Source: Candidatus Heimdallarchaeota archaeon
GTDB lineage: Archaea; Asgardarchaeota; Heimdallarchaeia; JABLTI01
NCBI GenBank assembly: GCA_018238155.1
Contig: JABCTZ010000032.1
Location: 64,001-128,000 of the forward strand
Length of the DNA: 64,000 nucleotides
Direction of reading: 5' to 3'
The notes beneath the pieces are model-generated. The model saw only the letters and a list, made by a program, of their open reading frames with translations. It was not told the origin of the DNA and did not search any database. Shown here piece after piece: positions 2,223-5,458 of this stretch (position 1 is the stretch's first letter; each line of letters begins with the position of its first letter). Both the position numbers and the translations under genes were made by a program.

Positions 2223-2858
2223 CTATTTTTCTGATAGAACTATCTCTAAAAAGAGCTCATGAAATCTGGTATCGTCAGTTAATTCTGGATGAAATGTTAC
2301 TGCCAATAGTTTCCCTTGCTTAGCTGCATAGATTTCTTCTGTAGATTTACAGAGAACTTCAACAATTTTTCCAACAGTTTTGATAATGGGAGCTCGAATA
2401 AATACTCCTGGAAAAGTTTTTTTGCCAAAACCTTGGACAACCAGATCTAATTCAAAAGATTCTTGTTGACGACCATATTTATTTCTAAGCACATCTATAT
2501 CCATCAACTCTAACAATGTTTGTGTGAATCCTTTAACTACTTTATCCGTAGAGGATTTTGAGAGCATAACAGTACCTGCACAAGTACCAAATAAAGCCAT
2601 ACCTTTCTTACCTTTCTCTTGGATCATTTTTATGAGCTTTTCATCAAATCGTTTTTCCTCAATGAAACGACTCATAACAGTACTTTCTCCACCCGGAATA
2701 ATTAGACCATCAATCTTTTCTAATTGTTCGGGTGTTTTTACACGAACAGTTTTAGTTGGAATATTCTTTTTCGCTAGAACCTTATCCATCATGAGAACAT
2801 GCTCTAGAACATCGCCTTGAATAGCTAATACACCAATTGTAATGTTTTTCTTAGCCAT
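2223..2858 (-). CDS. pdxT: PLP synthase glutaminase subunit
   Basis: GVLAIQG, IIPGGEST, GTCAG, RNxYGRQxxSF, FIRAP, FHPELT motifs; overlaps pdxS stop. Confidence 0.97.
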   Translation of the reverse strand: MAKKNITIGVLAIQGDVLEHVLMMDKVLAKKNIPTKTVRVKTPEQLEKIDGLIIPGGESTVMSRFIEEKRFDEKLIKMIQEKGKKGMALFGTCAGTVMLSKSSTDKVVKGFTQTLLELMDIDVLRNKYGRQQESFELDLVVQGFGKKTFPGVFIRAPIIKTVGKIVEVLCKSTEEIYAAKQGKLLAVTFHPELTDDTRFHELFLEIVLSEK

Positions 2859-3802
2859 TATGAATCAGCTCCTCGTTCTTGCATACTAAATTTCATTTCT
2901 GCACCTGTTAACCCAAGCATTGCTTTTGTTTCACTGACCATTTCTTGAGCTTCGATAACAACTTCAGGATGTTCCCAATAAGTTGTTGCTAGAACAACTG
3001 CAGAAGCTCTTTGTAATGCGTCTTCACTTTTGAAAATACCAGAACCAACAAAGACTCCATCAGAACCCAATTTCATCATTAGAGCAGCATCTGCGGGAGT
3101 ACTTATACCACCTGCTGCGAAATTAACTGTAGGTAATCGACCCAATTTTGCAGTTTCTAAAACAGTTTCAAAGGAAACTTTCATAGCTCTCGTTTTGAAC
3201 ATTAATTCTTGGTAATCATTAGCTTCGTAGAGACCTTTGATTTCTCTAATTTCATTGTTGACCAAACGAATATGGCGAACTGCTTCTGCAACATTGCCTG
3301 TGCCTGGTTCTCCTTTTGTACGAATCATTGCTGCGCCTTCATCAATTCGACGTAAAGCGCTACCAAGATCAATAGCACCACAAACGAAAGGGGCAACAAA
3401 GTCCCATTTCCATATGTGCCTGAATTCATCTGCCGGAGTTAATACTTCAGATTCATCAAGACAGTCTGCACCTGTCTCTTGTAATACAAGCGCTTCTCCA
3501 GTGTGACCAAGACGACATTTTGCCATTACTGGAATAGTAATTGCATCTAAAATATCACGAATGATTGGTATTGAAGCAGGACGTGCAACTCCACCACTTC
3601 TTCTTACATCAATGGGCAATTTATCAAGAACCATTACTGCCACTGCTCCTGCTTCTTCAGCAATATGAGCTTGTTCAACAGTAGTTACATCCATGATAAC
3701 GCCACCCTTTGTCATACGAGCGAACCCTCGCTTAACGCGATTTGTACCTCTCACAACTTTCACTTCAGTTGCGATTTGTTTTGTAATTTCGCCCGTTTTC
3801 AT
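2858..3802 (-). CDS. pdxS: PLP synthase lyase subunit
   Basis: [57 protein letters not shown]; likely start ATG 3802 (ORF-track TTG at 3859 lies inside the operator palindrome). Confidence 0.97.
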
Positions 3803-3852
3803 ATATGATCTTTCGGGGAACAAGTTTTTCATTTTGAGAATCCTCTCATTAC

Positions 3853-3894
3853 TATACAAGTTACAACTTGTATATTCAAGTTATAACATGCAAA
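3853..3894. promoter_or_regulatory. Two tandem palindromic operator-like sites between pdxS and the divergent ThrC-wHTH gene
   Basis: TATACAAGTT-AC-AACTTGTATA (3853-3874, perfect 10 bp arms) and TATTCAAGTT-AT-AACATGCAAA (3873-3894), offset by 20 bp. Confidence 0.7.
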
Positions 3895-4000
3895 TATTGA
3901 AATAGATGATTAAAAAATATTGTGTAGAAATAGCTTTATCGGTAACAGAAACGAAAAGAATAAAATAAATTAGTTAATAGATATCGAGGAGTTTCAATAA

Positions 4001-5458
4001 ATGAAAAAAAATGTTATTTGTGGTAATTGTAAAGCAGAATTGAGCACTTTGCAGAGATCAGCAACATGTCCACAATGTAGTGCTACCGAAGCTGAATTTG
4101 TTATTAATTTAGAAAACAATGAAACTCTCAAAATAAAAACAAACGAACAAGGAATATGGAAATATGAAGATTTTCTTCCAATATTTAAGAAAAGAATCTC
4201 TTTAGGAGAAGGTGATACTCCTCTAAGGCTGGCTCAAAATCTTTTCTCTAAAGATTTACAGCTTTTCGTAAAATTCGAGGGGAAAAATCCTACAGGCTCG
4301 TTTCTTGATCGAGTATCTCCATTAATGGTTTCTGATGCTATTAGTCGAAATATGGATTCGATAGTCTGTGCCTCGGATGGTAATTTAGGTGCATCTATTA
4401 GTGCCTATTGTGCAGCAGCAGATATTAAGAGCGTTTGTGTAATACCAAAAAGCACCTCTCCTGAGAAGAAAGTACAAATGACTGCTTATGGTGCTGAAAT
4501 CATTGATTTTGGTGAAACAATAGATGATAGTTTAGATTTAGCAAAGAAAATGACTGATGTTAAAAGATATCAAGCAACACCAGAGTTCAATTTATTAACA
4601 ATTGAGGGCGCAAAAACAATCTCATTAGAAATAGTACATCAATTACTCTCTCAAACCAACAATGTACAATTACCTTGGATTGAATATCTAGTTGTACCTA
4701 TCGGCAGTGGACGTTTGCTCTATTCAATTTGGAAAGGCTTCAAAGAAGCAAAACGATTTGGGTTGATAGCTGATCAAGAACTACCAAAGTTAATTGGTGT
4801 TCAAATAAAAGGTTATGATTCAATTACAAATGCAATAAAAGCAGGAGCAGCTGAACCAAAAGAAATCAAAAGGCGGAATTCAGTAGATCATTCATTAGGT
4901 GATGCAATTCTCACAAGAAAATCAGTTTATGGTGTAAAAGCAATTCAGAGCATCAAAGAAAGTAATGGGACATCAATTACAGTAACTGAAAAAGAGATGA
5001 TTAATGCTAGCAAGAAATTAGGGAAAGCAGAAGGAGTCTTTGCTGAGCTATCAAGTGCTACAGTTATTGCAGCGATTGAAAAATTAAACAGAAAACAATT
5101 TTTTGAGACTGGTGCCATTGTTTTAGCTGTAATTACTGCTAGTGGGCTTAAAACTTCACGGGCTTTTCAAAAAAGTGCTACTCGTTTGAAAAAAGTCGAT
5201 TCATTTAGAAGCATGGGTACTAAAGTAGAAATATTAACAATAATTGATTCTAAAGAAGCAAATTTTGGGTACAGTATCTGGAAAGCACTCGGACAATCTT
5301 TATCTTTGCAAGCTGTTTATCAACATCTTAAAGAACTATCTTCTAGAAAACATATTGTTGAAATTGAATCCACTGATCGTCAAAAGAAATATCGTTTAAC
5401 AGGAAAAGGTAAAAAATTGATTCAAAAAATGAGTGAATTGGAAGAATTGTTGCCATAA
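4001..5458 (+). CDS. Threonine-synthase-fold (PLP fold type II) protein lacking the catalytic Lys, with N-terminal Zn ribbon and C-terminal winged HTH; putative transcription regulator
   Basis: SLGEGDTPL, KFEGKNPTGSFLDR (canonical SFKDR), ASDGN, EGAKT, VITASG; C-terminal GTKVEIL...GYSIWKAL...QAVYQHLKEL...KYRLTGKGK (PadR/ArsR-like); SD GAGG before ATG. Confidence 0.85.
   Translation: MKKNVICGNCKAELSTLQRSATCPQCSATEAEFVINLENNETLKIKTNEQGIWKYEDFLPIFKKRISLGEGDTPLRLAQNLFSKDLQLFVKFEGKNPTGSFLDRVSPLMVSDAISRNMDSIVCASDGNLGASISAYCAAADIKSVCVIPKSTSPEKKVQMTAYGAEIIDFGETIDDSLDLAKKMTDVKRYQATPEFNLLTIEGAKTISLEIVHQLLSQTNNVQLPWIEYLVVPIGSGRLLYSIWKGFKEAKRFGLIADQELPKLIGVQIKGYDSITNAIKAGAAEPKEIKRRNSVDHSLGDAILTRKSVYGVKAIQSIKESNGTSITVTEKEMINASKKLGKAEGVFAELSSATVIAAIEKLNRKQFFETGAIVLAVITASGLKTSRAFQKSATRLKKVDSFRSMGTKVEILTIIDSKEANFGYSIWKALGQSLSLQAVYQHLKELSSRKHIVEIESTDRQKKYRLTGKGKKLIQKMSELEELLP

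Follow-up and report, generated by a model that had tools for sequence, protein, structure and literature searches.

A lysine-less threonine synthase paralog with a C-terminal winged helix as a putative vitamin B6-sensing regulator of pdxST in a Heimdallarchaeon

What controls the pyridoxal 5'-phosphate (PLP) synthase genes pdxS and pdxT in an archaeon, and why is a protein of the threonine synthase (ThrC) type encoded head-to-head with them? These questions are raised by a locus of a Candidatus Heimdallarchaeota archaeon (assembly GCA_018238155.1, contig JABCTZ010000032.1). The window analyzed here is a stretch of 64,000 nucleotides of that contig (positions 64,001 to 128,000; 33% G+C), and coordinates given without a contig or locus name refer to it. 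Positions 2223–5458 contain two divergent transcription units: pdxS-pdxT on the minus strand and, on the plus strand, a gene at 4001–5458 that codes for a protein of 485 amino acids (aa) consisting of a zinc ribbon, a putative sensor domain with the ThrC fold but lacking the Schiff-base lysine, a flexible linker and a PadR-like winged helix-turn-helix (wHTH). The nearest homologs of this protein come from metagenome-assembled genomes (MAGs) of Heimdallarchaeota, Thorarchaeota and the "Asgard group." Most likely, the gene encodes a one-component transcription factor and not a threonine synthase, and we consider it probable that this factor acts as a homodimer, senses a B6 vitamer and represses pdxST. 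It would then be an analog, but not a relative, of bacterial PdxR.

Alignment to solved threonine synthases placed codon 102 (CTT, 4304–4306), which codes for leucine, at the position of the Schiff-base lysine of PDB entries 2zsj and 6cgq: the protein has NPTGSFLDR where the enzymes have NPTGSFKDR. Since CTT is at least two base changes away from the lysine codons AAA and AAG, and since homologs of 50–91% identity covering this position carry L, M, Q, or F and never K, Leu102 is, judged by its codon and its relatives, not a sequencing error. Within the closest clade, leucine was found in 34 of 37 proteins and methionine in one, the other two having neither leucine nor lysine. A second change affects the loop that contacts the substrate carboxylate in ThrC. 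Residues 124–128 (4370–4384) read ASDGN in place of AS(T/S)GN, with D126 encoded by GAT at 4376–4378 and N128 retained; solved threonine synthases read CASTGN where this protein reads CASDGN. Position 126 is threonine or serine in 57 of 66 enzymes, aspartate or asparagine in 94 of 151 lysine-less fusions, and aspartate throughout the closest clade (37/37). Residue roles are argued here from conservation and not from published numbering.

A set of 264 homologs obtained from two database searches was compared for the presence of the wHTH and the residue at position 102. Lysine was present in 66 of the 71 homologs without the wHTH, whereas among those bearing it 38 had lysine and about 150 had R, L, I, V, M, T, or another residue. 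Since the lysine/non-lysine label needs a minimum of only three changes on a tree built without the lysine column and position 126, the lysine appears to have been lost a few times inside one coherent fusion family. The rest of the scaffold was examined by comparing 66 lysine-bearing, wHTH-less ThrC enzymes with 151 lysine-less fusions: 35 of the 49 columns that are at least 85% conserved in the enzymes show the same residue in at least 80% of the fusions, and most of the other 14 still share the enzymes' commonest residue at a lower frequency. Retained residues include N96, P97, T98, D103, R104, G127, N128, Y136, K205, E210, G235, G237, E349, T379, and G382–K384. Lys102 is the only strictly invariant enzyme column that was lost; its loss follows from the construction of the groups, yet no other invariant column was lost with it. 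This pattern would fit a domain that binds something cofactor-like without catalysis. A solved O-acetylserine sulfhydrylase with a Lys-to-Ala change holds its cofactor as an external aldimine with methionine (PDB 1d6s, entry title). The initial annotation had read the leucine, the ASDGN loop and the preserved ThrC fold motifs from this one sequence; alignment to solved enzymes and codon checks confirmed the first two, fold matches and conserved columns the third, and across homologs the loss of lysine tracks the wHTH fusion.

From the N- to the C-terminus, the protein comprises a zinc-ribbon-like CxxC...CxxC segment (4019–4078; C7, C10, C23, and C26, each cysteine being at least 90% conserved in the family alignment), a PALP domain of the fold type II PLP-enzyme class (residues 66–379, 4196–5137; Pfam PF00291, E-value 1.1e-61), a flexible linker (residues 390–403, 5168–5209) and a PadR-like wHTH with a C-terminal helix (residues 410–483, 5228–5449), the latter assigned from near-threshold Pfam scores and fold matches. 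Comparable N-terminal CxxC pairs occur in a lysine-bearing ThrC-like protein of the same genome. The full-length model had a predicted local distance difference test (pLDDT) score of 90, the linker being its sole segment below 50, and its top PDB folds were the threonine synthases 6nmx, 2zsj, and 1v7c (E-values 1e-27 to 1e-28, TMt 0.84–0.86). When residues 398–485 were modeled alone, a domain of topology H-H-H-E-E-H was obtained (pLDDT 92.8), whose best TM-scores were to the PadR family (3hhh, TMq 0.80–0.82; 5dym, 0.77; LmrR, 0.72–0.77) and whose lowest E-values (about 1e-3) were to MepR/MarR and RosR. A match to the Pfam PadR family (PF03551) is precomputed for many homologs, and no GntR match was detected by Pfam in the protein. 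The C-terminal PadR/ArsR-type winged helix that had been suspected from the sequence is therefore borne out by the fold of the isolated domain and its PadR-family matches. A two-copy model of the protein reached an ipSAE score of 0.74 (best control, 0.00); among proteins of solved structure, 20 of 30 pairs and one of 23 single chains attained this mark. The dimer runs agreed in at least 90% of contacts, with a partner pLDDT of at least 81, and predicted a symmetric interface within the PALP domain, although this score may reflect the likeness to solved ThrC dimers. The homodimer model is consistent with two wHTH domains being offered to a palindrome.

Members of this family are commonly named threonine synthase in databases. 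The best NCBIfam model for the protein is NF004170 (PRK05638), a "threonine synthase" equivalog of 442 positions; because it aligns over the whole protein, wHTH included (residues 6–477), it probably spreads that name onto lysine-less regulators. With neither NF004170 (354.7 bits, cut-off 421) nor TIGR00260 (137.7 bits, cut-off 167.1) does the protein reach the curated cut-off. In Thermococcus and Pyrococcus, homologs that bear the wHTH and an arginine in place of the lysine go under the names "threonine synthase" or "pyridoxal-phosphate dependent enzyme," in agreement with the statement of the initial annotation that ThrC-HTH fusions of Thermococcales are labeled as threonine synthase. On family members, this label is very probably a misannotation. 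The assembly contains a second ThrC-like gene (C20:142807-143793, minus strand) whose 402-aa product combines a zinc ribbon with an unaltered lysine (NPTGTFKSRG, PSAGNAG) and scores 161 bits with TIGR00260, just under the cut-off; it is likely the real threonine synthase of the organism or a related enzyme.

The two genes facing the regulator both exceed curated cut-offs. pdxT (2223–2858, minus strand; 211 aa) encodes the glutaminase subunit of PLP synthase (TIGR03800, 203.4 bits, cut-off 105.55; Pfam SNO, E-value 3.5e-55), and pdxS (2858–3832, minus strand) the synthase subunit (NF003215, 425.3 bits, cut-off 395; Pfam SOR_SNZ, E-value 2e-90). The pdxT start and the pdxS stop share one base (2858), and pdxT would be the second gene of the putative regulated operon. 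Divergence of pdxT-pdxS and the regulator gene was found in 10 of the 10 same-genus or sister-genus loci examined (L001, L003, L006, L007, L093–L097, and L116; 58–86% protein identity), so that the head-to-head arrangement first noticed in the window holds throughout these close relatives. Independent cases of pdxST adjacency were detected in L054 (Nitrososphaerota), in L012 (a Bathyarchaeia-like contig) and in L113–L115 (a sister Heimdall family).

Neighbors within 5 kb were then compared between 69 non-redundant lysine-less wHTH loci and, from the same scan, 14 lysine-bearing ThrC loci. A PF07155 gene or pdxS was present near 46 of the 69 lysine-less loci (39 with the former, six with pdxS, 45 with either, plus the window), and near none of the 14 lysine-bearing loci. 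PF07155 covers PdxU2/HmpT-like S-components of energy-coupling factor (ECF) transporters, a type linked to B6 uptake. The linkage of homologs to pdx genes expected in the initial annotation is thus upheld for the genus of the window, its sister genus and the independent recurrences; for the family as a whole the commonest partner is the PF07155 gene and not pdxST. That a B6-uptake gene is the commonest partner strengthens the B6 reading. The regulator family is essentially archaeal. L012 (DATHCJ010000024.1) is titled Candidatus Limnocylindrales bacterium and contains an archaeal regulator with arginine at the lysine position (Arg-type), a Bathyarchaeia-type palindrome and pdxS-pdxT directly downstream; as it resembles Bathyarchaeia loci, it may have been mis-binned into a bacterial MAG. 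In four loci from Thermococcus MAGs (L038:7988-8998, L040, L043, and L044), an Arg-type regulator is followed by a gene of 107–123 aa without family match and then by rpiA. RpiA (ribose-5-phosphate isomerase A) makes ribose 5-phosphate, the substrate of PdxS, and this neighborhood is possibly meaningful and possibly a coincidence.

The spacer between pdxS and the regulator gene contains two putative operators. Site 1 (3853–3874) is a perfect 10-N2-10 palindrome of 22 bp, TATACAAGTT-AC-AACTTGTATA, located 21 bp upstream of the pdxS ATG. Site 2 (3877–3890) is a degenerate copy, CAAGTTATAACATG (CAAGTT-AT-AACATG), centered 20 bp from site 1 and overlapping a TATA-like TTATAA at 3881–3886. None of 100 window shuffles matched the site 1 palindrome at up to three mismatches, and the perfect site was found once in the 4.08-Mb assembly. 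The next-best genomic match (C6:41399, three mismatches) was considered as a second operator and rejected, since it lies inside a 527-aa open reading frame (ORF) and was taken as chance; a relaxed search of the genome with a 16-mer and two mismatches returned about 30 scattered matches without pattern. Aligned spacers from the genus keep both sites, as TATACAAGT[TC]-NN-AACTTGTATATT-A[AG]GTTGAAACAT, while the flanking DNA diverges; the spacer of the sister genus (L116) has itself diverged. The paired operators proposed for the shared spacer are in this way corroborated by the palindrome, its second copy and the phylogenetic footprint. Viewed from pdxS, most orthologs have a TTTATAAA box a few bases past site 2, which would place site 2 between the TATA box and the expected transcription start and site 1 over the start site and leader. 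For pdxS, the ATG at 3832 is the probable start, because orthologs are called at 324 aa; the longest pdxS ORF begins at a TTG at 3859, inside the operator, and a Shine-Dalgarno-like GAGAGGA run lies on the minus strand within 3836–3847, ahead of that ATG. On the other side of the spacer, GAGGAG occurs at 3986–3991, upstream of the regulator ATG. The sequencing runs listed for this stretch were marine-sediment DNA runs in which it has a small share, and no RNA run was among them.

A motif equal to that of the window was found in a sister family of the same class (f3), associated with a transporter gene. Of 31 genomes of this family, 29 gave a match to the query, and those examined were Arg-type paralogs of 447–453 aa; pdxS was present in four genomes and absent from 27, including two closed ones. 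The regulator gene is one or two genes away from a likely ECF transporter operon, in which the S-like gene is followed by unannotated genes of about 545 and 245 aa. Ahead of the S gene there is a box resembling a B recognition element (BRE) and TATA box, directly followed by TAT[AT]CAAGTT-NN-AACTTGAATA. In the genomes of this family that have pdxST, the regulator gene adjoins it in L113 and is separated from it by 1.2 kb in L114 and by 10 kb in L115, and degenerate copies of the motif lie ahead of pdxS. The two closed genomes (G021 and G022) contain two sites 20 bp apart, the tandem spacing also seen in the window, before an S gene located about 150 kb from the regulator gene, and because of that distance the motif appears to follow the transporter gene and not merely the neighborhood of the regulator. 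Counts of motif matches across f3 were discarded, as a backward-read control matched as often in G021 and G022; the evidence used is the tandem arrangement and the position before the S gene.

A related palindrome, TAGTATAGTT-NN-AACTATACTA (also given as AGTATAGTT-N2-AACTATACT), was detected in Bathyarchaeia between the regulator gene and the S gene in about 20 loci, several of them with a second site directly after the first; it also lies ahead of pdxS in L012. It occurred once per genome in five of five genomes, with no control matches. Across 33 Bathyarchaeia loci, 31 of 35 operator matches were located just upstream of the transporter gene, and no copy was found in the spacer between thrC and the regulator gene. 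A GTT-N2-AAC core is common to the sites of the window lineage, Heimdall f3 and Bathyarchaeia.

The S genes matched PF07155 with E-values of 1e-29 to 1e-32. When the S-component proteins of a Loki (L005), a Bathyarchaeia (L030) and a Heimdall (L105) locus were compared with the whole PDB, essentially only 4HZU_S was returned (E-values 1e-13, 3e-10, and 3e-7, with one extra insignificant row at 0.92). 4HZU_S is HmpT/PdxU2 of Lactobacillus brevis, whose extracted substrate was pyridoxamine by mass spectrometry (PMC4860826), and PdxU and PdxU2/HmpT, placed under PF07155, are among only three characterized B6 transporters (PMC9997740). NCBIfam gave weak, sub-threshold matches only (TIGR04002, RibU, and FolT), so the B6 assignment rests on PF07155 and the near-exclusive match to 4HZU_S. 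Since no PdxU2-like S gene was found in the genome of the window by tblastn, the local regulon seems to consist of pdxST only. In genomes in which the regulator gene adjoins an S gene, pdxS was not found in nine of 10; counts of absent pdxS outside the Heimdall class, including Thermococcus and Nitrososphaerales MAGs of about 1.4–1.5 Mb and of unreported completeness, were not used as evidence. Within the Heimdall class (G016–G097), pdxS occurs in families f1, f4, and f5, is mostly absent from f3 and is absent from 22 of 22 genomes of f6; the f6 genomes include three single contigs, G073 is 96% complete, and the regulator is absent there too. This distribution suggests widespread B6 auxotrophy in Asgard archaea, with differing uptake solutions.

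In 23 loci, the S gene is directly followed by a gene of the AIR-synthase family (Pfam AIRS and AIRS_C), for example L009:12213-13235 (8-nt gap), L022:11999-13006 and about 21 other Bathyarchaeia loci. Its product falls below all curated cut-offs (HypE, 133 of 252 bits; ThiL, 94 of 184 bits; SelD) and was given no assignment. It is a candidate for a so far unrecognized ATP-dependent kinase of B6 vitamers, or would be ThiL-like if the transporter carried hydroxymethylpyrimidine.

Two members of the fusion family that keep the lysine, P0044 and P0110, also adjoin PF07155 genes. Because of this, the whole fusion family looks regulatory and the loss of lysine would be a derived state. At L124:4121-6093 and L125:5001-7089, lysine-keeping fusions with NPT[NS]SFKDR and N at position 126 were observed next to PF07155 S-component genes. 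A covalent internal aldimine, of the kind used by MocR regulators, may be the means by which these fusions sense PLP, in which case the family would span both binding modes.

These data support, through comparative genomics (lysine loss, synteny, operator footprint, and a separate lysine-bearing ThrC-like gene), the interpretation of the protein as an archaeal PdxR equivalent that had been advanced in the initial annotation. The following mechanism is proposed, for which we infer the identity of the ligand, its non-covalent binding, the sign of the control and the binding to DNA. The ThrC-derived, lysine-less domain would sense a form of vitamin B6, most likely PLP bound non-covalently, with pyridoxamine 5'-phosphate (PMP) or pyridoxine 5'-phosphate (PNP) as possible ligands. 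The protein would dimerize through this domain, and the flexible linkers would present two PadR-like winged helices to the DNA, where they would bind ACAAGTT-N2-AACTTGT (3853–3874) and the second site 20 bp away (3877–3890), both of which coincide with the pdxS TATA region or closely follow it. At high levels of B6, the regulator with its ligand bound would occupy these sites and block transcription of pdxS-pdxT by feedback repression; an effect on its own divergent promoter may come in addition.

Several observations weigh against this proposal. The C-terminal domain stays under the Pfam gathering cut-offs, both for PadR (PF03551, residues 411–475; 25.0 bits, cut-off 27) and for HTH_45 (23.9 bits, cut-off 25.5). 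About one third of the lysine-less fusion loci have no B6 gene within 5 kb, including Thermococcus loci in which the regulator gene sits between fttA and either rpiA or an amino-acid kinase gene; should such regulators have targets, these must be located elsewhere. In ten Bathyarchaeia or Thermococcus loci, genuine thrC and hom genes are close by, so that a ligand from the threonine pathway is conceivable. The position of the operators relative to the promoter was derived from sequence alone. Most calls of absent pdxS come from MAGs that are 63–95% complete. The HmpT/PdxU2 family was originally predicted to carry hydroxymethylpyrimidine and the AIR-synthase-like neighbor resembles ThiL and HypE, so that the transporter operon may instead serve a thiamine precursor. 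Finally, in the Heimdall-class families f4 and f5, pdxS is present and such a regulator is absent; since these families have pdxS without it, the regulator is not obligatory for pdxST control.

Among other explanations, the one that survives best, though we hold it to be unlikely, is that the protein regulates pdxST in response to a signal other than B6: an amino acid, O-phosphohomoserine, threonine, or an external aldimine of PLP and an amino acid in the lysine-less pocket, much as GabR senses PLP-GABA. The origin of the sensor domain from ThrC is in its favor, as are the ten related loci, in which a genuine thrC (TIGR00260, 367 bits) is divergent from the regulator gene with hom and ilvD nearby, and the methionine external aldimine crystallized in a lysine-less fold type II enzyme (1d6s). 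However, threonine or serine at position 126 has been replaced by aspartate or asparagine in most regulators, the genes linked to operators are pdxS and PF07155 transporters and not amino-acid genes, and the Bathyarchaeia operators stand before the transporter gene and not in the thrC-regulator spacer.

If a B6-sensing regulator is accepted, its sign could be the opposite, the protein activating pdxST at low B6 and being released or inactivated by its ligand. Bacterial PdxR, an activator of pdxST antagonized by PLP, sets a precedent for this, and the divergent arrangement of the genes matches that of PdxR and pdxST. In characterized archaeal systems, repressors bind directly downstream of BRE/TATA and activators upstream of BRE; in the orthologs and in f3 the sites lie directly downstream of a BRE/TATA-like box and reach the region of the start codon, an argument that is not decisive, as the transcription start site is predicted only, but that makes us regard an activator as distinctly improbable. 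That the protein is still an enzyme, a threonine synthase or other PLP enzyme working through a different lysine with the wHTH as a moonlighting or autoregulatory appendage, is very improbable: although NF004170 covers the whole protein, most conserved ThrC residues are retained and 38 fusion proteins keep the lysine, the Schiff-base lysine present in 66 of 66 lysine-bearing reference enzymes is absent, K91, K205, and K384 are invariant in true enzymes too and hence not substitutes, the scores stay under both curated cut-offs, the genome has a separate lysine-bearing ThrC-like gene, and even lysine-keeping fusions adjoin PF07155 transporter genes.

The B6-sensing repressor of pdxST thus remains our preferred reading. 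A broader proposal, to which we lean only slightly, is that the protein represents the first archaeal B6 regulator and belongs to a widespread family, built from a ThrC paralog and a PadR wHTH independently of PdxR, in which repeated loss of the lysine lets PLP bind reversibly; the regulon of the family would include pdxST, uptake through PdxU2-like ECF S-components and, in Bathyarchaeia, the AIR-synthase-family gene as a possible B6-vitamer kinase.

The gene located tail-to-tail with that of the regulator (5480–7543, minus strand) codes for 687 aa. Its product combines HEAT repeats and a PCI-like segment with a tail of the double zinc ribbon or RING-like type, and no functional connection to B6 is evident. 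Genes for proteins of 687–689 aa occur on the same strand 1.5–2.5 kb downstream of the regulator gene in L001, L094, and L095, the HEAT/zinc-ribbon architecture being confirmed by Pfam annotation only for the L001 gene. Several relatives of the same genus have a 491-aa gene directly past pdxT, with a 406-aa gene before it (L003:1401-4230; L093:1395-4225; L096:1036-2511, where the 406-aa gene is cut by the contig end; and L097:5519-8349). The annotation of L003 and L004 names the 491-aa product an MFS transporter and the 406-aa product a class I/II aminotransferase; in the other loci the assignment follows from size and position. In the window, the position of the MFS gene is occupied by a gene for a 521-aa secreted-looking protein (541–2106).

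In the literature searched, we found neither a description of an archaeal B6 regulator nor a paper describing this lysine-less ThrC-wHTH family. The only known regulators listed in a 2023 survey of PLP metabolism are the bacterial PdxR and PdxR2, and the same survey describes B6 transport as poorly studied (PMC9997740). With a specific candidate regulator, its operator sequence and the regulon predicted for it, the control in archaea of PLP, which is essential but reactive, becomes testable, and orthologs in cultured Thermococcus and Pyrococcus make experiments feasible. Annotation could be improved as well: hundreds of database entries and a curated NCBIfam model give these proteins the name threonine synthase, which distorts metabolic reconstructions of Asgard archaea, Bathyarchaeia and Thermococcales. 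For uncultured archaea, the link between operator and transporter helps in telling B6 auxotrophs and prototrophs apart, which is useful for the design of culture media. The protein would further provide a case of a pseudoenzyme reused as a sensor, convergent with MocR regulators from another PLP fold, another DNA-binding domain and another domain of life.

Among known systems, the closest parallel is bacterial PdxR, of the MocR/GabR subfamily of GntR regulators, which also joins a sensor derived from a PLP enzyme to a winged helix, whose gene is typically divergent from pdxS-pdxT with repeated operator sites in the shared spacer, and which adjusts B6 synthesis to PLP. In PdxR, a GntR-type wHTH at the N-terminus precedes an aminotransferase-like domain of fold type I that keeps its PLP lysine, whereas the protein described here has a C-terminal PadR-like wHTH and a fold type II (ThrC) domain in which the lysine was lost; PdxR is confined to Bacteria, in contrast to the essentially archaeal distribution of this family. 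Since there is no sequence or fold relationship between them, the resemblance is one of convergence. With threonine synthase, the protein shares the fold, the N-terminal zinc ribbon of archaeal ThrC and most conserved residues, but it differs in the change of lysine to leucine and of threonine or serine 126 to aspartate, in the added wHTH and in a context of B6 genes instead of threonine biosynthesis. As in PadR, LmrR, and archaeal RosR, its wHTH is followed by a C-terminal helix (TMq up to 0.82), and a dimer on an inverted repeat would be expected; PadR proteins, however, have an N-terminal wHTH and sense their ligand at the dimer interface, while in the present protein the wHTH is attached to the C-terminal end of an enzyme-like sensor of 390 aa, through which dimerization is predicted. 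In the archaeal vitamin regulators ThiR (ThiN domain plus HTH) and RbkR (riboflavin kinase plus HTH), an enzyme-derived domain controls the genes of the same vitamin. The protein would resemble them as an enzyme-derived, vitamin-sensing one-component regulator, in which a domain borrowed from the metabolism or use of a vitamin is joined to an HTH and controls genes of synthesis and uptake; it would differ from them in fold and vitamin, and in that its sensor comes from a cofactor-using enzyme, not from a biosynthetic or salvage enzyme, and is catalytically dead.

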